From NCBI GenBank assembly GCA_000004695.1, contig CM000153.2:5056001-5120000 (forward strand): 64,000 nt of DNA, read 5' to 3'. Position 1 is the stretch's first letter. Every line of letters begins with the position of its first letter. A program made the translations under genes and the position numbers. This DNA comes from Dictyostelium discoideum (lineage: Eukaryota). The notes below the pieces were generated by a model. The model ran no database searches, was not told the origin of the DNA, and saw nothing but the letters and a program-made list of their open reading frames with translations. Shown one piece after another: positions 5,049 to 57,519 of this stretch.

Positions 5049-6551
5049 ATGATTAAAAAGGTAAAATTGTTTTTATTAGTATTAGTATTATTTAATTTTT
5101 GTGTTTCACCATCATTATCATCATCATCAAGTGAATGTCAACAAACAGTTTATAGTGTTTCAGAAGTTAGTCCATATGTTCTTGGTAGTTTAGTTGTTAT
5201 TAAAGGTATTTTTTGTTTAAATAGTACAAATGGAGTATCAGTTGTATTGAACGTACCAGAAGAACATTCAAATATTGTATATGGCTTGAATTGTAATGAT
5301 TTAACAATTGATTCAATTGGTGAAACAATTACATGTAGATTATCAGACATCTATCAAAGTCAAAATAATAATGCAAACTTTTCATCATTAACAACTGTAG
5401 CAATTTATACACCAATCCCAGTACCAACACCAACACCATCACCAACACCATCACCATCACCACCATCAAAAATTGGTGTTGGTCCAGTACCAGTATTGGG
5501 AATTTCAAATTATATATTTACAAATAGTAGTTGTCCACAAAATTGTGAAATAAATGGATTTTGTGATGTTGCAAGTACTTGTAGATGTAATGAGGGTTAT
5601 GCATCATTTGATTGTAGTGTTAAAGTTTATAATGAATCTTCATTACCATCACCAAGTGTTGGTGATGATTTTGATACATTTTCAATGAGTACATCAAATG
5701 AAGATTTCTCAATAAGATTATCACATGTTTTGGCTAACCTTGAATTTCAAACTCAATTATCAACTTTATCGGTAAATAATAAGTCATCAAATAGTAATGG
5801 ATTATCGTATACCCTAAATGGAACCATTGGTAGTGATGGTCAAGCAACCCTATCACCATGGTTAAATCAGTTATATTATAATGTAGATTTCAATATAAAT
5901 GATGATGATGAGGATAACGAACCATCGTTTAAATTCTCCAATTATAAGGGTGCATATTTACCATTATCATCCTCTGCTGCCACAATTACAATTAATCCCA
6001 CTATAGACCCACAATATTTGCCATCGGGTTTTTCACATTATCATGGTTTTGGTGAATTTTATATGATATTTGAAATTTCGAATAAACATCTCACAATGAG
6101 TAAATATTTGAGTGCTACACCATTTATTGCAAGAAGTGTTACATTGTGGAGTGAAGAAAATGTAAATTCGATGATGGAAATTAGTTTATCCGATATTTAT
6201 AGTTTTGATGGATCAACTGTACCTGAACATGCTTATCTTAATGTATTCAATTCATTTGATTATCAATTTATAAAAAACTATTCAAATAGTTCTTTATATG
6301 TTGCTATTATCATTCCACAAACGTCATCCTATAATCCAATTCCAATGGGTACATATACAATTCAATTAAATATCAATGTCTATGATATTCGTTTATCAAT
6401 TTCAAAAGGTAGATTCCCACCTTGGTTTATCGCTTTAATTGTCATCATTCCATCAATCATTGGAATAGCTATCATAGCAATAATTATTAAATGTGTTTTA
6501 TCAAAACGTAATAGTTATTCAAGAATAGGAGATCACCCTCTTCACCATTAG
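5049..6551 (+). CDS. Type I membrane glycoprotein with a signal peptide, a Pro/Thr/Ser-rich linker, an EGF-like Cys module and a C-terminal transmembrane helix.
   Basis: Intact 500-aa ORF starting at an ATG. The N-terminal signal is MIKKVKLFLLVLVLFNFCVSPS. The linker is PIPVPTPTPSPTPSPSPPS. The EGF-like module is CPQNCEINGFCDVASTCRCNEGYASFDC. The hydrophobic segment FIALIVIIPSIIGIAIIAIII is followed by a basic stop-transfer motif, KCVLSKR. Confidence 0.6.
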   Translation: MIKKVKLFLLVLVLFNFCVSPSLSSSSSECQQTVYSVSEVSPYVLGSLVVIKGIFCLNSTNGVSVVLNVPEEHSNIVYGLNCNDLTIDSIGETITCRLSDIYQSQNNNANFSSLTTVAIYTPIPVPTPTPSPTPSPSPPSKIGVGPVPVLGISNYIFTNSSCPQNCEINGFCDVASTCRCNEGYASFDCSVKVYNESSLPSPSVGDDFDTFSMSTSNEDFSIRLSHVLANLEFQTQLSTLSVNNKSSNSNGLSYTLNGTIGSDGQATLSPWLNQLYYNVDFNINDDDEDNEPSFKFSNYKGAYLPLSSSAATITINPTIDPQYLPSGFSHYHGFGEFYMIFEISNKHLTMSKYLSATPFIARSVTLWSEENVNSMMEISLSDIYSFDGSTVPEHAYLNVFNSFDYQFIKNYSNSSLYVAIIIPQTSSYNPIPMGTYTIQLNINVYDIRLSISKGRFPPWFIALIVIIPSIIGIAIIAIIIKCVLSKRNSYSRIGDHPLHH

Positions 6552-7511: not shown

Positions 7512-10500
7512 ATGTATTCAGGATTATGGACTAAAAATGGAGAACAAATACTTCCATCATTTATATCGATCAATGCCAAAGTTGTAGATTTGGCAGCACA
7601 AATCGTCTTTACCAAGACCTATTCAGACATTAACAAGTATTTCGCCACAATGAACAAAATGAACAGTAGCAACGAAGAGGATGCAACCTTTAAAGCATTT
7701 TTAAATACATCCATGGGTGTATTATGTGGTTTCGAAATCAATCTCGATGGTAAGAAGATCACATCCCAAGTCGTTAGTCAAGCCGATGCAATGAGATTGT
7801 TTGAAAAGAATCAAATCAGTACTGCCGATGATATCGTCAAGGAAGCCGAGTTCAACAATTCCGATCCACACATTGAAGAGGATTTCTTTCTCTGTAAAGT
7901 TAATAACCTCTCTCAATATAAGGAGCTAGAAATTATTATCACTTACTCCACTGAAATGTCAACCCAAGGTGACTATCTTTTTATGGAATTCCCAACTTCT
8001 CTAACTACAATTAGATCAAGTCAATTCTTTGAAACTTTAGATAATGAAAATAGTACAACAAATACAAATACACAAACTCAACCACAATCTGTAAATACAA
8101 CCACCACAACAACACCATCAACAACCACAGCCACAAATATAACAAATATAAATAATAATATACAAAATATAGGATCATCAACAACAGGTGGTTTAACACA
8201 TTCAACATCATCTAATAAATTATCATTATCATCATCATCAATTCAAGTTAATCAAAAACAAGGTTTATTGATTGAGATGAATTTAGATATGCCATCAAAA
8301 ATCTCCGAAATTATTTCACCATCACATTCAGGTTTGATTGATGTCGAGTACAAAGGAGAGACTGGTAAGGTAACATATAAAGATTCACGTTCTATCGATG
8401 TCGTTAATCAATCTGATTTGGTTGTATTGATTAAATTGGATAACCCACATGAACCATATGGTTTCATTGAAGAGAATGAAAATGGTAGCCGTGCTCTTAT
8501 GATTGCTTTCTATCCTCAATTATCCTCTGCCGCTATTGCCGCCTCTGCCACTACACCTGTCGTTGAAAGTGAATTAATCTTTTTAGTTGATGTCTCAGAG
8601 TCAATGGAAGGTTATAATATGAAACATGCAAAGAAAGCACTCCATCGTTTCCTTCATTCCCTTTCAAAGGATACCTATTTCAATATCATTAGTTTTGCTT
8701 CATCTCATCGTAAATTGTTTGCTCAATCTGTCAAATACAATGATGAAAACCTTAAAGCTGCCACTGCCTACGTAGAATCACTCAAAGCCATTAGCCATGG
8801 TGAAACTAATCTCTTGGAGCCATTAAAAGATATCTACTCTGTTGATGCAACTTGTCCAAGAAAAATATTCCTCTTAACTGATGGTCGTGTTAATAATATT
8901 GGTCCAATCGTTGATTTAGTTCGTCAAAATGCTCATAATACTTCAGTTTTCCCAATTGGTATGGGTGAATTCGTTTCACGTCAACTTGTAAGTTTTTTTT
9001 TTTTTTTTTTTTCGTTTTTTTTTTTTTTTTCTCTCTCTTCTTTTATTCTCTTTTTATAAAAAAAATATCTTTTGTGAACTTGGACAAAAATAATTAACAT
9101 CTCGGTTTTTTTTTTTTTTTTTTTTTTTTTTTCTTTTTTCTCTCTCTTCTTTTATTCTCTTTTTATAAAAAAAAATAGGTTGAATATATTGCAAATGCAG
9201 GATCAGGTGTTGCAGAATTAGTAATTGAAAATGAAACCATTGAAAGTAAAGTTATGCGTCAATTAAAGAGAGCATTACAACCAGCAATGTCAAATATTAA
9301 AGTTGATTGGGGATCATTATCAAGTAAGAGTCAAGCACCAAGAGATTTACGTACATTGTTTTTCGGTGATCGTTTAACTATTTATAACATTCTTGGAAAA
9401 GATGAAAAGATCGATGGTACTACCGTTAAATTAATTGCAAATGGTCCAACCGGTCCAGTATCTTTCCCAGTTACCATAAAGAGTGAAGAGACTAAAAAGG
9501 GTAATCTCGTTCATAGTTTAGCTGCCTATACATTAATTCAAGATCTTCAAGATCAAATCTATGAAAATAATTTAGTTGATCCAAAGGATATTGATCCAAT
9601 TCGTCAAAAAATCATTGATCTTGGTATTAAATATGGTTTAGCTTCAAATTATACTTCTTTTTGCTCTGTTGAACAACCTGATCAATTTAATGAATTATTA
9701 AATAACAATAAACAATCAGAACAAGCACAAGAAACAACAACCACCACCACCACCGCAACCACAGTTGATGATAATGTAGTTATTGAAGAGAATAAACAAC
9801 CAGAACCAATTGTAGAGGAACAACCACCAGTTTTAAATGGCAATATTAATTTACAAAATTTAACAATCAATCATGATGGTAAATCAAATGATAATGGTTT
9901 GTTCAAATCAAACGATAGACTTAAAACTCATCATCAAGGTGAAAGCGCTATGATTTCATTGAGAGGTTCTGCTAGTGGTATCCCAACTACTTTATCTGGT
10001 AGTGGTATTCCATTCTATAATCCATCTTCACCAAATCATGATCGTAATATCAATACTACTCAACAACCAACACCAACACAATCTACTCCATTAAAAACAC
10101 CATTAAAAACTCCACTCACTCCATTATCAAAATCTGGTCTTAAAGTTAGTTCACCAGAATTTGTACCAAAAAATACATTAAGTGCTAAAGCTGCTCCATT
10201 TGTTCCATCACCAAATAAATTACCAACTACAACAACTTCAGCTCCAGCAACAACTCCAATTACAACCCCAGCCCCAACTACTACTACTACTGAAGTTAAA
10301 CCAACTGTTGCAGAACCAGTTAAACCAGTTGTTGCAGAACCAACTAAACCAGTCGTCGCAGAACCAACTATACCAGCTGTCGCAGAACCAATTAAACCAG
10401 TTGTTACAGAACCAACAAAACCAGTTGTTGAAGAACCAGCAAAACCAGCTGTTAAACCAACACTTTTTGAAATGATTAAAATTGCTGAAGCTAAAGCTGC

Positions 10501-11227
10501 CGCTGAACAAAAAGCTGCTGCTGAACAAAAAGCAATCGCTGATGCAAAAGCTGCCGCTGAACAAGCTGCCAAACCTGTAGAACCAGCTGTTGTCCAACAA
10601 CAACAACCACAACAAACCAAACCAAAAGCTGATAAACAATCAAAACAAAATGCAAAGGATAATAAACAATCAAATAAACCAGTTGTTGTCGAACAAAAAC
10701 CACCAGTTGTAACTGAAACTAAACCAACTGTTGCCACTGAATCAGCTACACCAACTAAACCAACCTTTGCTCAAGCTGCTGCCGCTGCTGCTGCTGCTGC
10801 ACAACAAGCTGCACAACAAGCTGCTGCAACAACTCCAGTCAAACAACAACCAACTAAACAAACTACACCAAATAAATCAACACCAGCTGTTGAAACTAAA
10901 TCAGTTGTTGCTGAAACCAAACCAGCAGTTGAACAACCAAAACCAGTTGAAACCAAACCAGTAGTTGAACAACCAAAACCAGTTGAAACTAAACCAGTAG
11001 AACAAACAAAACCAGTTGAAACTAAACCAGTTGAAGTTAAACCAACAGTCGAACAACCAAAACCAGTCGAAGTTAAACCAACAGTTGAACAACCAAAACC
11101 AATTGAAACTAAACCAACAGTAAATTCAATTGCATCAACACTTGCTAATTTTGGATTCCAAACCAATGAACCAGCTAAACAAGCAACACCAACTCCAGCT
11201 CCAACTCCAGTACAATCAAATGAATCT

Positions 11228-11269
<42 letters not shown>

Positions 11270-13942
11270 AACAACAACAACAACAACAACAACAATATTG
11301 TTTCCTCAACACCAATTAAAAAACCAGCAGTTACAAATATTTTACCAACTCAAGCAGTTATTTTATCATCAGGAGGACGTCGTGTTTACAATAATGATTT
11401 CTTATTATCATTTAAAGATTCAAATACTAAAGCACCAGATTCATTAAAAACCACACCAATCTTTTCAAATGGGCCACAAGGTATTAGCCCATCATCTGGA
11501 AATGGTTCAAACAAATCCCACTTTGGTAAGAAGAGAGGTGATCGTGGTGGTAGAGGTGGTAGAGATCGTAATGCCGATGCTGAACCATCAACTCCAATCA
11601 TTGTTAAGAAAGTTTTCTCTCAAGATGTTCAAGGTACTCATCAAGAATTATTAAAGAAATTCAAATTCAATCTTAATAGAATTACAATGGATACCTATAG
11701 TTCATTGATTAAAAATATCGATGAATTAAAAGTACCAGATGAAGAAGCACTCAAATCAATCTCAAAGATTCTCTTTGAGAAAGCAATTATTGATCAAAAA
11801 TATTCAGCCGTTTATGCAATTCTTGCAGGTCATTTAGATACAACTTTCCCAAAGTTTGCCGAACTTTCACTCAAACGTGCCATTCTCGATAATTGTCAAA
11901 CTGAATTTAGTGCCGTTGTTGATAAATCCAAATTTGAAGGTTTAAGTAAAGAAGATCTCGAAGAACAAGAATTCATCATAAAGAGAAGAGTTTTAGGTAA
12001 CATTAAATTCATTGGTGAGCTCTATAAACATGGTGTTCTCGGTGAAAAAGTTGCAAAAGCTATCGTTGTTCAATTGATCACCAAATGTGAAGAGAGATTA
12101 GACGAAGAATCCATTGAACCATTGGTTAAGATTCTCAACACTATTGGTAAGAAACTTGATGAAGTCGATAAGGCCAACACTGATTTATACTTTTCCAAAG
12201 TAACCAACATCTCAAATAATCCAGTAGTTACCTCTAGAGGTCGTTTCATTTTATTGGATCTTATTGATTTAAGAGCAAATAAATGGCAACCAAAGAATTC
12301 CACCCAAACAAAAACCAAAAAAGACGAATCAGACAAAGAAGAACGTTTCATTGCTAAACATGGTGGTCCACAAAAGAGAGAAAATGATTCACGTAGAGAT
12401 GGCGGTAGAGACTCAAGAGGTGATGATCGTAGAGGTGGCGGTGGTAGAGATTCAAGAGGTGATGATCGTAGAGGAGGTAGAGATTCAAGAGATGCACCAA
12501 GAAGTGCATTTGGTGGAAAGAGTAGTAAAGATGGTTGGGAGACCGTTGGAGCAAAGGGAGGTAATAATAGAGATAAAGGTGGACGTGGTGGTGATCGTAG
12601 CGGCGGCAAACAATCTCCAAGTGGTAAGAAAGATTCAGGTTTTGGTCCATCGTCAGGTGGTTCAAGCTTATTTGGTAGTAGAAGAGGTGATGATCGTAGA
12701 GATGGTGGTGGTAATTCATCACCATATCGTCCAGGTCAAGGATTTGGTAGAAAGGATGATCAATCATCATCAATTCCATCAATTCCAAATAGATCCAATG
12801 CATTCAGTGCTTTAGAGGATGATGATTATCAACCATCAACATCACCACAACCACCATCAGTATTTGGTAATCGTTCCAACGATAGAGACTCTCGTGGTCC
12901 ATCAAAACCAGATAATCGTAAACAACCAGCTCAACCACCAGCCCCAGTTGAACCAGTTAAACCAAAGATTAACTTTGAAAAGATTGAAGATGATATTTCA
13001 ATGACTTTGGATGAATATGCTGAAACCCAAGATATCGATGAAGCCATCGAATGTATAAAAGAAATTAACGAACCAACCGTTTTGGGTAAACAATTCAACA
13101 TTTTCATCATGAAATCATTGGAGAGAAAAGAAAAAGAGAAACAATTGATCATCGAATTGTTCAGTGGTATCTTAACAGCCCAATTATTCAATGCCGAGCA
13201 AATCAAAGAAGGCCTCAAAGAAATCATTGATACCATTGAAGATATTGAAATAGATCTTCCATTCTCTGGTGTATTCGTTGCAACAATCGTGGGTATTTGT
13301 ATAGAATCTGAAATATTCCCATTGAATTATTTAGAGGAAGCATACGCTCATTTGGTTGATAGTGATAAAGCTGAAGAGATGATTGTAAATACATTTAATT
13401 CCATCGTCAAAGTCTCTGATAAAGATCGTTTAGTCGAAATCTATGAAAATACCAAAGGTCTTGATATCTTGAAGTTATTCGCTCTCAAGAATAGAAAAGT
13501 TGCCTACTTGGAAGAATTCTATCAAACTCATTTCCCATACCTCTCTCATGAAAAAGCTGTCGAAGGTAGTAATGAATCAGCTTTGAATGAACAACCAGAT
13601 CTCATCGAACATCTCTTATTGTTACAATCTGCTGATGGTTATTGGCAATTGGATAAGAAATTGGCTGGTATTTTAGGTATCTCTTTAAATATTTTAGAAG
13701 AAGTCGATTCTAGTGACAGTTGTGTTATCACTACACACCCAGAGGTTTGGGCAACTTGTTTAGCTATTACCTTTGTCAATTTAAATAATGTATCTGATCC
13801 AGATGATGAAGATGATTTGGAATTAGTACTCAGTAAAAGTCATAAATGGTTGGCTTCTCAATATCAATCTGATAAACCACCAAAACAATCTCAAGATGAT
13901 GTTTTATTAAAAGCTAAAAGATTATTAAGTGAAGTTTTATAA
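7512..13942 (+). CDS. Large protein joining an N-terminal VIT plus VWA module (VWA5A/PARP4-like) to an eIF4G-like core, which has an eIF4E-binding motif, a MIF4G domain, an RGG/RGD-rich segment and an MA3 domain. It ends in a VWA5A-type C-terminal tail. Exons are 7512..8987 and 9179..13942.
   Basis: Exon 1 carries the VWA MIDAS-type motif LIFLVDVSESMEG and LLTDGRVNN. It ends ...SRQL at a GTAAGT donor. A tttataaaaaaaaatag acceptor joins it in frame to exon 2 (VEYIANAGSG...). Exon 2 is a 1,588-codon stretch with no stops. It contains RRVYNNDFLLSF, which matches the eIF4E-binding motif KRYDREFLLGF of human eIF4G. It contains ...IIKRRVLGNIKFIGELYKHGVLGEKV..., which matches the RRRSLGNIKFIGELFK signature of MIF4G. 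It has an MA3-like region (DEYAETQDIDEAIECIKEINEP...) and ends ...LLLLQSADGYWQLDKKLAGILGI.... Confidence 0.7.
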
Positions 13943-15096: not shown

Positions 15097-17388
15097 ATGA
15101 GATTTAGTAAATTTATTATGATTTCAAATTTATGTTCAGAAGAATTACAGATGAAATTAATTGATAGAAAATTAATAGAATGTGAAGATTTAAAAATGAT
15201 AAATGACTTAATTTCATATAATTTCAAAATTTTAAATAATTTTAATGAATTTAAAATGTTACCGAATTCATTTTTTCATTATTTCGAAAGTTATTATTGT
15301 GGTGATGGTGGTAATAGTAGAAAACAGCTTTATAAACATTGTGCAATTTCTTATTGTTTATTTAAAAGATACCTAGAATTTGATAGTAGTGATGAAAGAA
15401 ATAAATTTTCATTTAATATAGTTGAATTCTTTGAAATTGCAATTAATTCATACTCTTTAAGTACTTTTTGGAATTTTGATTTTAGAAAATTAAATTTAAC
15501 TTTACAGGAGAAATATGAAATTTTAAATATTTTTATAAATTTTAAAGTCGATAATTCAAATCCATTGGAAAAGAAATTAAATAATTTGGAAAAAATAATA
15601 AATGTATTATATCCTTTTCAAGTTGTAGAATCACCACTACCTCAAATTGAAGAAGTTTATAAATTCTATAATTATTTAAAATCAAATTATAATGTTAATA
15701 ATTTAATTAAAATAATTCAAAGTTATTATCATTTGAATATAATTAAAGATGGAAATTTAAATTTATTAAATTCATTTTTAAATATATTTAAAGATGAAAT
15801 TAAAGATTCCAATTTCTTTTTTGAAAATGATAAACTTTTAATAAATCAAGATTATTTTATTAATTGTAAGGATAATAGTAATAAAGTTTTATTATTTTTA
15901 GATAGATTATTAGAAATTAAAGAATTTATAAATAGTGATATAATATATTCAAAATCATTCCTTCAATCATTAAAATTATCATTATTTCCAATTAGTAAAG
16001 AGGATTTTTTAAATTCATTATTAAAATTAAAACAACACTTTAAATTAACTCAATCATTACCACCATCACCATCTTTATCAATTAAATTTAATTATTTTAG
16101 TGATTTAATATTTAATTTATTAATTGATAATATCAATGATAAATTATTTATAAGAATGATAATAGAATCATTTATAAATTATTTACATAATGATATGGTT
16201 ATTCAAATTTTAGATAAATTAGTTGAAATTGATTTTGAATCATTTTCTTTAATATTAAATTCTTTGGGTAATGATTATAAGATTAATGAATCATTATTAA
16301 AATATAAAATTAAAGTAAATTCTTCAATTAAAATTTTAATTTCATCATTAAAATGGTATAAATATTTAGATTTTACATATTTAATTGAAGATTTAATTAT
16401 AAATTCAAATGACGGTGGTAGTGATGATGATGGTTCAAGTGAAATTAAATTAGATTTACAATTAATTGAAGAAATAATAAATTTACAAATTAATAATGAA
16501 ATGTATCAATCTAAACCAATATCGGATTTGGTAGTTGATCAGTCATTAAACTTTATGAATGATTTATTTGGTGGTGGTGATGATTTTAAATATATATCTT
16601 ATAATGCAACAAAGTTTGCATTAAATAAAAGAATGTTCAACTTATTAGAATTATTTTATAAACCAAAATATAAAAAATCATTCCATTGGGATGAGGAATT
16701 ATTTTCTTATCCTCCAATTTTACCAAACCCAACCTCATTTCAACAAGATAAACCACAACAACTACAACCATATCAACAAAATCAAAAGATTGAAAAAGAA
16801 GAGAAAGAAATAAAAAAACTAAATAATGCACAAAAAACAAAAGAAATTAATATTAAATCAAAATCAAAAACTAATACTGAATTAAATAATGAATTAAAAC
16901 AAATTCAAAGTTATTATTTTATTGATGATTCAATTATGTTATTGGAATTGGGTGAAGTAAGAGATGCTCTTTTCTATTTTAAGAAATATGGTAAAAATGA
17001 TTTGAAAAGTTTAAGTACAATCAACCTAAAAAAGATAATCAAAGCCTATGAAATGGAAATTGTGGCCCAATATATTTCTTTGTACCTCTCATATTTTGGA
17101 AGAACTGTTACAACTGACCTATTATACTATTCATTAAAAAAGGGCAGAATTGATGTTTACCAATTCCTTTACAATTATAATTCCAACTTTAAAATGATTG
17201 ATCAATATTTTTATACGAATCTAGCTAAAAGAGGTGACATACCAATGATTAAATTTCTATTATCTCAAGATACATTCACTAATTTATCAAATAATAGAAA
17301 AAATGAAATAATTAATCAACTTTTAACAATAGCCATTGAATTGGGTAATAATAGTCTTTTAAATTGGTTAAACACTCTACCCTCATGA
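15097..17388 (+). CDS. Hypothetical Asn/Ile/Leu-rich protein of 763 aa. It is in the same frame as 14335..14772 and is probably the continuation of that gene.
   Basis: Intact ORF. The 324 nt upstream (14773..15096), including a run of about 45 AAT codons, are open in the same frame. Confidence 0.45.
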   Translation: MRFSKFIMISNLCSEELQMKLIDRKLIECEDLKMINDLISYNFKILNNFNEFKMLPNSFFHYFESYYCGDGGNSRKQLYKHCAISYCLFKRYLEFDSSDERNKFSFNIVEFFEIAINSYSLSTFWNFDFRKLNLTLQEKYEILNIFINFKVDNSNPLEKKLNNLEKIINVLYPFQVVESPLPQIEEVYKFYNYLKSNYNVNNLIKIIQSYYHLNIIKDGNLNLLNSFLNIFKDEIKDSNFFFENDKLLINQDYFINCKDNSNKVLLFLDRLLEIKEFINSDIIYSKSFLQSLKLSLFPISKEDFLNSLLKLKQHFKLTQSLPPSPSLSIKFNYFSDLIFNLLIDNINDKLFIRMIIESFINYLHNDMVIQILDKLVEIDFESFSLILNSLGNDYKINESLLKYKIKVNSSIKILISSLKWYKYLDFTYLIEDLIINSNDGGSDDDGSSEIKLDLQLIEEIINLQINNEMYQSKPISDLVVDQSLNFMNDLFGGGDDFKYISYNATKFALNKRMFNLLELFYKPKYKKSFHWDEELFSYPPILPNPTSFQQDKPQQLQPYQQNQKIEKEEKEIKKLNNAQKTKEINIKSKSKTNTELNNELKQIQSYYFIDDSIMLLELGEVRDALFYFKKYGKNDLKSLSTINLKKIIKAYEMEIVAQYISLYLSYFGRTVTTDLLYYSLKKGRIDVYQFLYNYNSNFKMIDQYFYTNLAKRGDIPMIKFLLSQDTFTNLSNNRKNEIINQLLTIAIELGNNSLLNWLNTLPS

Positions 17389-27930: not shown

Positions 27931-28629
<699 letters not shown>

Positions 28630-35514: not shown

Positions 35515-51567
<16,053 letters not shown>

Positions 51568-51748: not shown

Positions 51749-52879
51749 ATGAGATTATTTTATCTTATTTTTTTTTTAATTGTTTCTACAATTATTAATG
51801 GTTGTAATTCTCAAATTCAAAAAAATGATTGTATTTATTTTTAGTTAAACTATTTTTTTTTTTTTTTTAATGACTTTTATTTTTTGTTACTAACATTTTT
51901 TTTTTTTTTTTTTATTTAAAAAAAAGATAATTGTTTAAATAAATTGATTGTTAAAATTGCAAATCTTTCATTATATAAATTAAATAGTACATCTAAACAA
52001 TATGATTATTGTGGAACAAAAAATAATAACGTAATAAATTGTAATTCAAATGGAAGAATAACAGATATTCAACTAACTCATTTTGTAAACAAAGCAACTA
52101 ATTTAATTTCAGCAAATGATTATTATTGTTTTCCTTTTTTAAAATCAATGTAAGTAAATTTTAAAATTTATTTTTTAAAATTATTACTCTTTTAAATATT
52201 AGTATTTTTTTTTTACTGTTTATTTAGAGGTGTAGATAGTTTTAGAATTGAGAAAAATTTTATATATGGTCCTTTTCCTGATACTTTATATAAAAGAATT
52301 TTTTTATTAAATGGGGATTTATTATCAGTATTTGATGTTGACACTGAAATTGGATTTAATAATACTATTAAAAGAACAGAAATTGATACTTTTAGACTTG
52401 TTGGTGGTGTTGCTACATCATTAAACACTACAGTTTATATGTCAACAATTTCACATTTTAAAAATATTGAATTTATATATGGTACTGCAGTAATTACAAA
52501 TAAAACCAACTTTATATTTGAAAATGATTTAAATGAAAATAAAAAATCATCATTTAAAAAAATTACTTCCTATTGCTCAAATATACCACCATTAAGTTAT
52601 AATAATGGAACTATTAATTTCGTGTACGTATAAACTAATTTAACATATTTATTTAAATATATTTTTAGTTTTAATTAATATTTTTTTTTTTTATTTTTAT
52701 TTAAGTGAACTCACATTTTTACCAAGTTTCGATAAAGAATCAGTTTCAAATTTTTCAAGTTATTCAAATGTTTTGGATATTTATTTAAATTCATGGGACC
52801 CGAATCAAGTTTTCCCATTTCCACTAGGTCTTGGTAATATTCCACCAAATAATAAATTAATTTATATGTAGGTTTTTAG

Positions 52880-52916
<37 letters not shown>

Positions 52917-53049
52917 ATCTAAATCAATTAAATTTTTTTTTTTTAGATACATTAACTATTTAATTGATAGCCCACCTCATTTAATTGACCTATCAAACTT
53001 AGACTCAAACGATAAAACCGATTTATATTCTTATAATACATTGTATGTA

Positions 53050-53082
<33 letters not shown>

Positions 53083-54311
53083 TAACTATTTATAATTTTG
53101 GAAATTAGAACATTGAATAATCCAGGTAATCTTTTCAATTTTAATGGTAAATTCCCATTCTCTTCTCTTCATAAAAATTTAGTGATTTTGTAAATATTTA
53201 TAGATTAATTATTATTGTTTTTTTAAATTTTTTTTTTTTTTTTTTATTAACATTTATAAATTAATTATATTATTTTAGTGATTTTAATGATGGTAATTTT
53301 TCAGAATTACCAAAATTAGAAGATGTTTTTAAAGAGGAAATAGCTGTAATTAATTTGAATAATAATAGTATTGGAGGAAATATTCAAACCACATTGGATT
53401 TTAATAAACTTCCAAAGTTAGCAACACTTAATTTAAGAAATAATAGATTAACAGGATCAATTGACGAAAGTTGGTGTAGAATTAATTTTGATATTAGTTA
53501 TAATCTTATTGGTGGTGAAGCTCCTAGTTGTATGGTTTGTCATTTTCAACAAAATGATTTATCTATTCGTGGAATAAATTTTACTAATTGGAATCCAAAA
53601 CCACCATGCACTTCAATTATTCCAAATTTAATGTACGATAATTCAACAAAACTATTATTAATATATGGTCAAGATATTGGCGTTGCAAGAACAAATTTTA
53701 AAATAGAAAACTCATATAACTATTCACCATATTGCAGTATGCCTGGTTATCCAGATATTAGAAATAGACAATTTTGTTTTAAATACATTGACACTGATGA
53801 ACCAAATCCATTTTCATTTAATATTACATACCCAAAATTACCACCAGGTTCAAGAAAAACATTTGAATTGGCTGCTTATAATATGTTTTTACCATTGGTT
53901 AATAAGGTTACAATGAACTCCAAAGAATCATTAACAATTGCTGGTAGATATTTCGCATACAACAAAACAGTAATTAATGTTCAAGTTGATGGCAAAATCT
54001 GTAATATTGAATCATGTGATTTTAATGAAATTAAATGTAAATTTTCAAATGATAATAACAATAATATTAATGGTTTAAATGTATTTGTACAAATTATGAA
54101 TGTTTCATCCCAATTTTGTATTTCCAAATGTAATGCAGCTGATAATTATGAATGTGAATTTAAATTTGAAAGATGTAATTGTAGTGAAGGATGGGAAGGT
54201 GGTGACTGTAGTATTAAAATTGAGAACAAATTATCAAATTCAAATAGAAACAATATTTTAAATACTACTATAATATTTATAGTTTTAATTTTAATACTAT
54301 CATCATTTTAA
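51749..54311 (+). CDS. Secreted or membrane-anchored protein with plant-type leucine-rich repeats and a C-terminal EGF-like module. This is copy A of a tandem pair. Seven exons: 51749..51830, 51927..52149, 52228..52623, 52706..52867, 52947..53042, 53109..53189 and 53279..54311.
   Basis: Exon 1 is a signal peptide (MRLFYLIFFLIVSTIINGCNS). The LRR motifs include LRNNRLTGSIDESWC and DISYNLIGGEAPSC. The EGF-like module is CEFKFERCNCSEGWEGGDC. The C-terminus is hydrophobic (IIFIVLILILSSF). All donors are GTAAGT, GTACGT, GTAGGT, GTATGT or GTAAAT. The phases close across all six introns. Confidence 0.65.
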
Positions 54312-54467
54312 TTTAAAAAAAAAAATAAAAAATGTGGTTTTAAGACAAAATTCTTAAAATATATTTATTTATTATAAAAAAAACATTGTTTTTTTTATAA
54401 TAAAATTTTTTTTTTTCAAACGATAAAACTATGAAAAAAAAATAAAAAATAAAAATAGTTTTTTTTT

Positions 54468-54500
<33 letters not shown>

Positions 54501-54524
54501 CCAAACGAAAAATTAGTAAAGATA

Positions 54525-55688
54525 ATGGGAAGATATTTCGTTTTTTTATTAGTTTTTATTTTGTTTTTTAATGGTTTTAATTCGCAAATTCATAAAGATG
54601 ATTGTATTTATATTTTTATTTTTAACCTTCAATAACTTTTATACATATACACACAACTAACATTTTAATTTTTTTTTTTTTTTTGTTTTTTTTTATTTTT
54701 TTTAAAAAAAAAAAAGATAGTTGTTTGAATAAATTAGCAGTAAAAATTTTAAATCTATCATTATATAGTTTGAATAGTACAACTAAACAATATAATTTTT
54801 GTAGTAAAGTAAATAAAAATGAAATAAATTGTAATTCAGATGGGAGAATAACAGGAATTCAAGTAGTTCATTTCAAAAAAATAAATTTACTTTCGCCAAA
54901 TGATTTTATTTGTTTTCCTTTTTTAAAATCAATGTAAGGCAATTTTAAAAAAGATATATTTATTTAAAAATATTAATTTTTTTTTTATTAATTAATTTGT
55001 TTTATTATTAATTTATTTAGAGGTGTAGAAAGTTTTGTAATTTCAAAAAATTTTTTATATGGTCCTTTTCCTGATTCTCTCGATGAAAGAGTTTTTTTAT
55101 TAAATGGGGATTTATTATCAATATTTGATGTTGACACTGAAATTGGATTTAATAATACTATTAAAAGAACAGAAATTGATATTTTAAGAGTTAATGGTGG
55201 TGTAGCTACATCATTGAACACTACAGTTTATATGTCAACAATTTCACATTTTAAAAATATTGAATTTATATATGGCACTGCAGCAATTACAAATAAAACC
55301 AACTTTATAATTGAAAATGATTTAAATGAAAATAAAAAATCATCATTCAAAGATTTCACTTCCTATTGTTCAAATATACCACCATTAAGTTATAATAACG
55401 GTACAATTGATTTTGTGTATGTATAAAGCTATTATATAATTTAACATTATATTTATTAAAATATATTTTTAATTTTAATTAATATTTTTTTTTTTTTTTC
55501 CCCCAAGTGAACTCACATTTTTACCAAGTTTCGATAAAGAATCAGTTTCAAATTTTTCAAGTTATTCAAATGTTTTGGATATTTATTTATACTCATGGGA
55601 CCCGAATCAAGTTTTCCCATTTCCATTAGGTCTTAGTAATATTCCACCAGGAAATAAATTAATTTATTTGTAGGTTTTTTGTTTTATT

Positions 55689-55719
<31 letters not shown>

Positions 55720-55840
55720 CTAACCCAAAACAAAACTTTTTTAGATACACAAGCTATTTAATCGATAGCCCACCTCATTTAATTGACCTATCAAACTTGG
55801 ACTCAGATGCTAAGATTCCATATAATTTTAATACATTGTA

Positions 55841-55872
<32 letters not shown>

Positions 55873-57395
55873 AAAAAATAAAAAAGAGAAACATTAATTA
55901 ACTATTTATAATTTTAAAAATTAGAACCATAGATAGTCCAGGTAATCTTTTCAATTTTAATGGTAAATTCCCATTCTCCTCCTTTTATAAAAATTTAGAA
56001 CATTTGTAAATATTTAAAAATAATATTATTTATTATTATTACTAATAACATTATTATATTAATTTATTTTTATTAATATTCTTTTTTTTTAAAAATTATT
56101 CTTTTAGTGCTCTTAATGATGGTAATTTTTCAGAATTACCAAAATTAGAAGATGTTTTTAAAGAGAAAATAACTGTAATTAATTTGAATAATAATAGTAT
56201 TGGAGGAAACGTTCAAACCACATTGGATTTTGGTAAACTTCCAAATTTAAAGGTACTTAAATTAAAAAATAATAAATTAACAGGATCAATTGATGAAAGT
56301 TGGTGTAGAGTTAACTTTGATATTAGTAATAATCTTATTAGTGGTGAAGCTCCTGGTTGTGTTATTTGTCATGTTCCTGATCATCATCCACGTATTCGTG
56401 GAATTAATTTTACCAATTGGGATCCAAAACCACCATGCACTTCAATTATTCCAAATTTAATGTACGATAATTCTTCTGACCTACTCTTACTCTATGGTCA
56501 AGATATTGGCTTCTCGCCTATGGATATGTATATACTAGATATTTCATATAAATTCTCATTTTCCTGTGATATGCCTGGTTATCCTGAAATTTATAATACT
56601 CAATTCTGTTTAAAATACATTAGCACTGATGGACCAAATCCATATTCATTTAATATCACATACCAACACTTACCACCAGGATCAAAAACAACATTTGAAT
56701 TGGCAGCTTATAATATGTTTTTACCATTAGTTAATACCGCTATATTGGATTATTCCAATGAATCATTAACAATTGCTGGTAGATATTTCTCATACAATAA
56801 GACAGTAATTAATATTCAAGTTAATGGTAAAACCTGTAATATTGAATCATGTGATTTTAATGAAATTAAATGTAATTTTTCAAATGATAATAACAATAAT
56901 AGTAATTTTAATGGTTCAAATGTATTTGTACAAATTATGAATGTTTCATCGGAAATTTGCATTTCCAAATGTAATGATGATGTCCCTTATGAATGTGAAT
57001 TTAAATTTGAAAGATGTAATTGTAGTGAAGGATGGGAAGGTGACAATTGTGAAACTCTTAAAAGATGTCCAAATGATTGTAGTGGTGCAGGTATTTGTAA
57101 TCATATCACTGGAATATGTTTATGTAATTCTGGTAGAATACAAGATGATTGTAGTGTTTTAGGATTTGAATGTAAGTCAGATTGTTTAAATGGTTCAAAA
57201 TGTAATTATGCAATTGGTAAATGTGATTGTATACTTGGATGGGAAGGTGATGATTGCAGTTCAGAATTATCATCATCAGAACCATCATCATCATCAGAAC
57301 TATCATCATCAGAACCATCAAAATCAAACAAAATAATACTGCTCAGTGTTCTATTACCATCACTTGCATTGTTGGGTTTAATATTATCATTTTAA
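54525..57395 (+). CDS. Copy B of the LRR/EGF protein. It has the same seven-exon structure and carries two extra EGF-like units and a Ser/Glu-rich stalk before the C-terminal hydrophobic anchor.
   Basis: Exon 1 is MGRYFVFLLVFILFFNGFNSQIHKDD| at 54525..54603. Exons 2-6 are collinear with copy A at about 80-90% amino-acid identity. The last exon is ORF 56184..57395 and contains the extra EGF-like units CPNDCSGAGICNHITGICLCNSGRIQDDC and CKSDCLNGSKCNYAIGKCDCILGWEGDDC. Confidence 0.65.
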
Positions 57396-57519
57396 TGCAA
57401 AAACAATAATAAAAATAAATATAGTGTAAAACTAAATAAATAAATAAAAAAAACAATTATTTTTTATTATTATTATTATTATTATTACTATTTATTTTTA
57501 TAATTTTATTTTTTATTAT

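Follow-up and report, generated by a model that had tools for sequence, protein, structure and literature searches.

A tandem pair of genes for putative short, tail-less ComC-like surface proteins in Dictyostelium discoideum

Among the described surface proteins of Dictyostelium, two systems are close to the locus considered here, which is a tandem pair of genes (copy A, DDB_G0286933, and copy B, DDB_G0286963) in a window of 64,000 nucleotides (nt) of D. discoideum DNA (assembly GCA_000004695.1, contig CM000153.2, positions 5,056,001 to 5,120,000 of the forward strand; all positions below are counted from the first letter of this window). The Tgr proteins TgrB1 and TgrC1 have IPT/TIG repeats without leucine-rich repeats (LRRs), are extremely polymorphic and are divergently transcribed. 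The other system is comC, which was reportedly placed by Kibler and colleagues in 2003 in a cell-adhesion/communication pathway with lagC. The best-supported reading of A and B, made from sequence and comparison, is that they are two expressed, constrained and lineage-specific short ComC-like surface glycoproteins, in which an LRR surface would sit on a pedestal of IPT-like, EGF and stalk segments. In the literature, comC is listed with a signal peptide, EGF domains and a transmembrane (TM) segment and as confined to group 4 dictyostelids (PMC4931340), and the comC mutant shows aberrant aggregation (PMC2873529).

The features that A and B share with the ComC family are a signal peptide, a Cys-capped LRR_ComC solenoid, two beta-sandwiches, the first of them putative, EGF modules of the tenascin/teneurin type, a C-terminal membrane segment and a distribution restricted to dictyostelids. 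Specifically, the Pfam family LRR_ComC (PF24141) is matched with 80.0 bits by A and 80.1 bits by B (cut-off 27, E 3e-22) over profile positions 1-287/288. The first ComC beta-sandwich (PF24142) is matched by A over positions 1-38/79 only, with 18 bits where the cut-off is 27, and is not listed for B, where an AlphaFold2 (AF2) model places a beta-sandwich at residues 457-545 with a predicted local distance difference test score (pLDDT) of ~72-93. The second, IPT/TIG-like beta-sandwich (PF24143) reaches 29.1 bits in B against a cut-off of 27; copy A has a TIG match of 17.8 against a cut-off of 20.9, and few fixed differences separate A and B in the coding sequence (CDS) of this second sandwich. 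EGF_2 is found in B with 31.9 bits (cut-off 22.1), and A contains one six-Cys module whose EGF matches stay below threshold. A phmmer search returned 879 representatives at E<1e-3, 21 of them at E<1e-30, and the matches whose source was checked were all dictyostelid (D. discoideum, D. purpureum, D. citrinum, D. dimigraforme); a word-based search added weak matches to plant receptor-like proteins, in the LRR part only. A and B are short members of a dictyostelid-specific ComC-like family.

They differ from the long members of that family in several respects. The latter have ~1100-1500 amino acids (aa), and the canonical ones combine LRR_ComC, both beta-sandwiches, many EGF modules and the supersandwich domain PF22933 (ComC_SSD); in P0019, P0023, P0026, P0033 and P0036, all of them long members, this domain is matched with 165-212 bits. 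A and B, on the other hand, have 690 and 771 aa and one or three EGF modules and, in AX4, have neither the supersandwich domain nor a cytoplasmic tail. The nearest D. discoideum paralogues are DDB_G0286881 (950 aa, 45% identity to B) and DDB_G0286211 (896 aa, 32%), which have the same short architecture without ComC_SSD; a tblastn search of the window found no further paralogues of A and B, and both of these genes lie outside it. DDB_G0286881 has EGF pairs, a Ser-rich stalk and a TM sequence like those of B, but unlike A and B it has ~10 EGF modules (by Cys count) and has kept a basic cytoplasmic tail, ending in ...KKRKNEDQYKYHIKLK. Such a tail, basic and 9-28 aa long after the TM segment, is present in 33 of the 39 other aligned family members, whereas in A and B nothing follows the hydrophobic segment; in four aligned members without a detected terminal TM segment the C-terminus is different or incomplete.

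The layout common to both proteins consists of a signal peptide, a Cys-capped irregular LRR solenoid, two IPT-like beta-sandwiches, one (A) or three (B) EGF modules and a terminal hydrophobic segment, with a Ser-rich stalk in B alone (positions are collected in Table 1). A hydropathy scan gives exactly two hydrophobic segments per protein, at the N-terminus and at the extreme C-terminus, and the two sequences contain 17-20 N-x-S/T sequons and 21 (A) or 32 (B) cysteines. The AF2 model of the 771-aa form of B, calculated from a 42-sequence family alignment, has a mean pLDDT of 82.8 and a predicted TM-score (pTM) of 0.72. It comprises a helical, Cys-containing cap, an LRR solenoid at about residues 25-440 (pLDDT mostly 85-96), two beta-sandwiches at 457-628, three EGF modules, a disordered stalk at 731-749 and a C-terminal helix at 749-770, and it supersedes a model of a 740-aa form of B built on a 9-sequence alignment (pLDDT 58, weak Foldseek matches).

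When the model of B is compared with the PDB by Foldseek, its LRR part matches the ectodomains of the plant proteins BRL, MIK2, FLS2 and PSKR as well as those of Toll-like receptors (TLRs) and LGR proteins, the sandwiches match IPT domains of plexin and MET, and the EGF modules match those of Notch. A family profile searched against the PDB has top matches that are all ectodomains of plant LRR receptor-like kinases (RLKs), at profile positions ~285-416, that is, in the last few repeats, and its EGF part matches teneurins. The likeness to plant LRR proteins (FLS2, GSO1, MIK2, PEPR1, BRI1/BRL, PGIP) lies in a 24-residue repeat, LxxLxLxxNxLTGxI, for example LATLNLRNNRLTGSIDESWC; of the repeats in A and B, only the last 2-3 fit the plant-specific consensus LxxLxxLxLxxNxL(S/T)GxIPxxLGx, as IAVINLNNNSIGGNIQTTLDFNK and LPKLATLNLRNNRLTGSIDESWCR do. 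The remainder of the solenoid is irregular, there is no kinase domain, and the LRR part is followed by beta-sandwiches and EGF modules, an arrangement not known from plant receptor-like proteins. A first-pass annotation of this DNA, made from the letters alone, had called the repeats plant-type, which the repeat consensus and the top profile matches support for the last repeats, and its description of the products as surface-type proteins with LRR and EGF parts agrees with the domain architecture found here.

The gene models of A and B were rebuilt from a three-frame translation and anchor searches, and their spliced translations are identical to database entries (Table 1). All introns (12/12) run from GT to AG, are 66-113 nt long and have a GC content of 6-15%, with splice phases 1,2,2,2,2,2 in both genes and collinear exons, and the seven-exon layout with these phases that had been proposed earlier is thereby recovered. 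The peptides quoted with that proposal are also found, namely MRLFYL...QKND, MGRYFV...HKDD, CLNKL...NCNS[ND]GRIT, YGTA[VA]ITNKTNF, LTGSIDESWC and SSSEPSSSSELSSSEPS. A further quoted segment, ...GTI[ND]FVYV, is present, but its terminal YV is a read-through of the exon 3 donor and the spliced protein reads ...FVELTF. Both genes are already in the AX4 annotation and in UniProt and the family is curated in Pfam, and the observation is in this respect real but ordinary.

The model of B, however, is not the same in all resources. The AX4 reference model (XP_637472.1 / Q54L31) has 740 aa and corresponds to the 771-aa sequence minus the 31 residues of exon 5, which are included in the newer annotation KAM9941807.1 and also in the orthologous gene models P0002 and P0017 of two other genomes. 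In three other genomes the AG/GT borders and the frame of this exon are kept and it is free of indels, while the flanking introns have 6-23 gapped columns; the ratio of nonsynonymous to synonymous divergence (dN/dS) of the exon is ~0.08 between the AX4 and L002 orthologues (the latter genome is introduced below). In the AF2 model the exon sits within the LRR solenoid, where the means of 10-residue blocks over residues 281-320 are at pLDDT 75-96. Because the borders, frame and length of exon 5 are conserved while the introns around it vary, the sequence comparison favours the seven-exon, 771-aa model of B rather than the 740-aa model.

Three further assemblies served for comparison, GCA_054859385.1 (L001), GCA_054859355.1 (L002) and GCA_054859205.1 (L003, D. 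cf. discoideum), giving four genomes together with AX4. The A-B pair lies immediately downstream of a giant HECT ubiquitin-ligase gene, and in all three comparison assemblies the HECT gene is likewise followed by A, then B, then the downstream genes. Seven exons, all splice sites and intact open reading frames (ORFs) are found in 8/8 genes (A and B in each of the four genomes). Since the A genes group together and so do the B genes, the duplication is older than the separation of these four D. discoideum-complex lineages. Nucleotide identity between A and B is 75, 81, 91, 95, 87, 84 and 86% for exons 1 to 7, exon 1 (75%) being the most diverged N-terminal part. The introns are indel-rich and more diverged than the exons, yet their alignment scores lie 3.0-8.7 standard deviations (SD) above those of shuffled sequences, intron 3 being the most similar (z=8.7). 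It had been claimed earlier that the two genes were duplicated in tandem on one strand and have kept their intron positions, that the duplication is old and maintained, and that exons are 80-90% identical and introns have diverged. The rebuilt models and the four genomes agree with the first claim; the presence of the pair in four genomes, the intact ORFs and a dN/dS below 1 agree with the second, and the figures for divergence were roughly right (75-95%, with introns more diverged), although the introns are still detectably homologous.

Between orthologues, exons 1-6 contain no indels, while every intron has 4-38 gapped columns. By the Nei-Gojobori method, dN/dS is 0.26-0.34 for A orthologues and 0.36-0.44 for B orthologues, compared with 0.14-0.17 for the flanking HECT gene and 0.06-0.10 for the downstream ORF. 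The corresponding dS is 0.08-0.17 for A and B (~0.08-0.13 for A orthologues) versus 0.11-0.18 in the flanking genes, and A against B gives dN 0.15, dS 0.25 and dN/dS ~0.6. This indicates that both copies are under purifying, somewhat relaxed selection, with a constraint 2-4 times weaker than that on their neighbours. Positive selection on the ectodomain was considered and rejected: the only exon with a paralogue dN/dS >1 is the 26-codon signal-peptide exon, where the value is not meaningful, and four genomes are too few for site models. As a separate observation, the dS of ~0.1-0.18 that separates L001, L002 and L003 from AX4 in the housekeeping flanking genes is large for one species, which suggests that these genomes, all of which carry the label D. 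discoideum or D. cf. discoideum, represent deeply diverged lineages of a D. discoideum complex.

The similarity between the copies is unevenly distributed along the genes. Between A and B the distance amounts to 0.21 in exons 1-2, 0.08-0.10 in exons 3-4 and 0.16 in exons 5-6, with 0.16-0.22 in the segments adjoining the exons 3-4 tract; within exon 7 it is 0.17-0.20 in the first part, 0.08-0.11 at CDS positions 1501-1950 and 0.44 in the tail. Moreover, the same genome-by-genome pattern is seen in A and B at 12 of the 33 shared polymorphic sites, against a mean of 3.7 and a maximum of 10 in 2000 permutations, and exon 7 of B in L002 contains a long stretch with A-type residues. Recurrent gene conversion between the paralogues has homogenised exons 3-4 and a central part of exon 7, and the duplication is therefore older than the mean A-B similarity suggests.

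The 3′ ends of the two genes have followed different courses. EGF modules 2-3, the Ser-rich stalk and the membrane segment of B align to DDB_G0286881 over 143 residues (51% identity, E 1.6e-43), and the EGF modules of B are 48-56% identical to the EGF pairs of that protein, whereas the tail of A gives weak EGF matches only. Because these parts of B align to an outgroup paralogue they are probably ancestral, and the most likely course is a loss, from copy A, of two EGF modules and the larger part of the stalk; the first-pass annotation had rightly noticed that B exceeds A by two EGF units and has a Ser-rich stalk, but described these as gained by B, a direction which the outgroup alignment most likely reverses. 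More specifically, the EGF module of A ends in ...GWEGGDCSI in AX4 and in ...EGDDCSI in two other genomes, which resembles the end of B EGF3 in other genomes (...GDDCSI) and is unlike the end of B EGF1 (...GDNCETLK). This fits a deletion in A between the repeated GWEGD motifs of EGF1 and EGF3, as judged from protein-level junctions and outgroups, the DNA alignment of the 3′ ends past EGF1 being uninformative.

The cytoplasmic tail can be followed in B. The B orthologue in L002 has a tail, LVLKKFYNRKNNIKNKYNIKLK, after the TM segment, which resembles the tail of DDB_G0286881. In AX4, L001 and L003, and not in L002, the DNA alignment has a 1-nt deletion in a T-run that turns TCATTTTTAGTG into TCATTTTAATG and puts a TAA directly after the TM segment. 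On the line of descent to AX4, a frameshift of 1 nt has thus removed the short, basic cytoplasmic tail of B, and a relic of this tail can be read in frame from what is now the 3′ untranslated region (UTR; Table 1). A ends at the point equivalent to the B stop in all four genomes (four/four). The B stop was also considered as a micro-conversion copied from A, and the flanking TM-coding distance of 0.44 is too diverged for a decision. An identical 10-mer, TCATTTTAAT, spans the stop codon in A (54303-54312) and in B (57387-57396), next to TM-coding sequence that is ~44% diverged; micro-conversion or independent mutation could account for it. Candidate omega sites in B are Ser-rich and lie 7-10 residues upstream of the terminal hydrophobic segment, and this stretch would suit the omega site of a glycosylphosphatidylinositol (GPI) anchor, as a candidate only. 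Length variation between genomes affects two low complexity regions: the stalk of B has >100 residues in L002 (B exon 7, ~15570-15960) versus 24 in AX4, and a poly-Asn run in the second beta-sandwich region (~54050-54070 in A, ~56890-56915 in B) varies from ~4 to >20 Asn among genomes in both genes.

Table 1. Positions of copy A, copy B and their features in the window, with the basis of each assignment
Feature	Position	Strand	Remark
Copy A, DDB_G0286933, 690 aa	51749-54311	+	Spliced translation identical to XP_637471.1 / Q54L32
Copy A, exons 1-7	51749-51830, 51927-52149, 52228-52623, 52706-52867, 52947-53042, 53109-53189, 53279-54311	+	
Copy A, exon 1, signal-peptide-like N-terminus MRLFYLIFFLIVSTIINGCNS, followed by Q...	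51749-51830	+	Hydropathy scan
Copy A, exon 3-intron 3-exon 4, homogenised (gene-conversion) tract	52228-52867	+	Partner in B 55021-55669; few fixed differences
Copy A, single EGF-like module, C627...C657	54117-54209	+	Cys spacing
Copy A, C-terminal hydrophobic segment TTIIFIVLILILSSF and stop codon	54264-54311	+	Hydropathy; unchanged in four genomes
Copy B, DDB_G0286963, 771 aa including exon 5	54525-57395	+	Spliced translation identical to KAM9941807.1
Copy B, exons 1-7	54525-54603, 54717-54933, 55021-55416, 55508-55669, 55745-55837, 55925-56005, 56108-57395	+	
Copy B, exon 1, signal-peptide-like N-terminus MGRYFVFLLVFILFFNGFNS, followed by Q...	54525-54603	+	Hydropathy scan
Copy B, exon 5, 31 aa, YTSYLIDSPPHLIDLSNLDSDAKIPYNFNTL	55745-55837	+	93 nt; omitted in XP_637472.1; present in KAM9941807.1
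Copy B, three EGF-like modules, aa 627-726	56958-57257	+	EGF_2 and EGF_TEN matches; 18 Cys as 6+6+6
Copy B, Ser/Glu/Pro-rich stalk SSELSSSEPSSSSELSSSEPSKSN	57258-57329	+	Read from sequence; pLDDT <50
Copy B, C-terminal hydrophobic segment KIILLSVLLPSLALLGLILSF, TAA directly after	57330-57395	+	Hydropathy; AF2 helix 749-770
Copy B, cytoplasmic-tail relic, now 3′ UTR, in-frame CKNNNKNKYSVKLNK and stop	57396-57443	+	Aligns to L002 tail LVLKKFYNRKNNIKNKYNIKLK, ~15980-16049

Taking all of this together, the explanation that we prefer, with a probability of about 0.6 for the whole, is that of a tandem pair of tail-less ComC-like proteins which are displayed at the cell surface and serve as ligand-binding components of adhesion or of a co-receptor. 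The proteins would be N-glycosylated and exposed on the extracellular side of the plasma membrane, held there either by a tail-less TM helix or by a GPI anchor added after cleavage of the C-terminal signal. The concave face of the LRR solenoid may bind a ligand, either protein or glycan, that is presented by neighbouring cells or by the matrix. The lack of a cytoplasmic tail would make A and B components of adhesion, co-receptors or decoys rather than autonomous signalling receptors, possibly in a cell-cell communication pathway of the kind described for comC.

Several points weigh against this explanation. A Pfam search found no match to PF22933 in A or B at E<=1, and since the supersandwich domain is lacking, their function may differ from that of comC; the nearest paralogues, DDB_G0286881 and DDB_G0286211 (P0006 and P0008), lack it too. 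The raised dN/dS could just as well be due to weak function. A search by gene ID of the literature that was available returned no publication naming DDB_G0286933 or DDB_G0286963, and the functional part of the explanation is what we infer from the analysis.

The other readings of the locus concern either its role or its status. The first-pass annotation had considered a self/non-self role with rapid diversification, and a kin or allorecognition pair of polymorphic ligand and receptor could indeed be envisaged by analogy with TgrB1/TgrC1, given that A and B are adjacent paralogues for surface glycoproteins with Ig/IPT-like folds and binding-type ectodomains, that their dN/dS is higher than in the flanking genes by a factor of 2-4, and that the stalk and the poly-Asn run differ in length from genome to genome. 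We consider it very unlikely, and neither part of the earlier suggestion is upheld, because dN/dS is well below 1 in every orthologue pair (0.26-0.44), dS is ordinary and the features that define the Tgr system are absent. Specifically, the dS of A and B equals that of the flanking genes and there is therefore no sign, among the four genomes, of long-lived balanced alleles; gene conversion makes the copies alike, not diverse; neither AX4 protein has a signalling tail; the ectodomain is dominated by LRRs and its TIG matches fall below the Pfam cut-off (one such sub-threshold match being in A); and the genes form a same-strand tandem, not a divergent pair. A role as pattern-recognition-type LRR receptors or co-receptors for bacteria, be they prey or pathogens, is rather unlikely as well. 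It would be in line with an LRR part resembling, in sequence and fold, plant pattern-recognition receptors and RLKs (FLS2, MIK2, PEPR1, BRL) and TLR ectodomains, with the somewhat raised dN/dS, and with a clade that looks lineage-specific, no close orthologue having been found beyond the D. discoideum complex by phmmer and word-based searches. The LRR similarity, however, is generic to the fold, and comC, the sole characterised member of the family, has a developmental cell-communication phenotype.

As to the status of the pair, it is highly improbable that copy A is a redundant duplicate decaying towards a pseudogene. It has lost its cytoplasmic tail, along with two EGF modules and the larger part of its stalk, and the A-versus-B dN/dS of ~0.6 is high; yet its ORF and all its splice sites are intact in four genomes at a dS of ~0.08-0.13, its orthologue dN/dS lies below that of B, and its exons 1-6 are indel-free. 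A duplication created by the assembly is refuted, as the earlier annotation had held on the understanding that identical copies would point to one: the copies differ at ~15% of nucleotides, in every exon and intron, their 3′ architectures differ, and the same A-B order is present in three independent assemblies. The preferred explanation, a tail-less ComC-like adhesion or co-receptor pair, leaves room for a more specific version, which we regard as doubtful. According to it, the tail-less pair would be an innovation of the D. discoideum complex, in which ancestral type I ComC-like receptors were turned into GPI-anchored or shed co-receptors or decoys of ComC-type communication, the conversion step in copy B being the frameshift that removed the cytoplasmic tail. 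If this were true, signalling capacity would differ between cryptic lineages, since L002 still has the B tail, which is gone from AX4, L001 and L003.

The remainder of the window contains several other features. It is very AT-rich, with a GC content of 0.11-0.40 in 1-kb windows, and its proteins agree exactly with those of D. discoideum AX4. The HECT gene upstream of A is seen as an uninterrupted ORF of 4884 codons (36913-51567, +), with the HECT ubiquitin-ligase domain (220 bits) at its end. An ORF of 500 aa (5049-6551, +) has a signal-like N-terminus, a Pro/Thr/Ser-rich linker and a C-terminal TM segment with a short tail, together with one EGF-like Cys motif and a weak EGF_TEN match below the cut-off; its product looks like another, unrelated, putative surface protein. 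On the minus strand, a polyubiquitin gene (27931-28620) encodes three head-to-tail ubiquitin units (312 bits). An ORF of 1562 aa (9254-13942, +) contains long Pro/Thr/Val/Lys-rich repeats and RGG-like stretches, and the most GC-rich part of the window (10000-13000, GC up to 0.40) lies inside it. A tRNA search of the window found none.

The scientific weight of the locus is small, and no new question is opened by it. What the analysis adds is (i) an exon that is absent from the AX4 model of DDB_G0286963, (ii) a mosaic of gene conversion between the two copies and (iii) a loss of the cytoplasmic tail from both proteins, traceable for B, and these additions are useful for the study of ComC-like surface proteins in Dictyostelium development.

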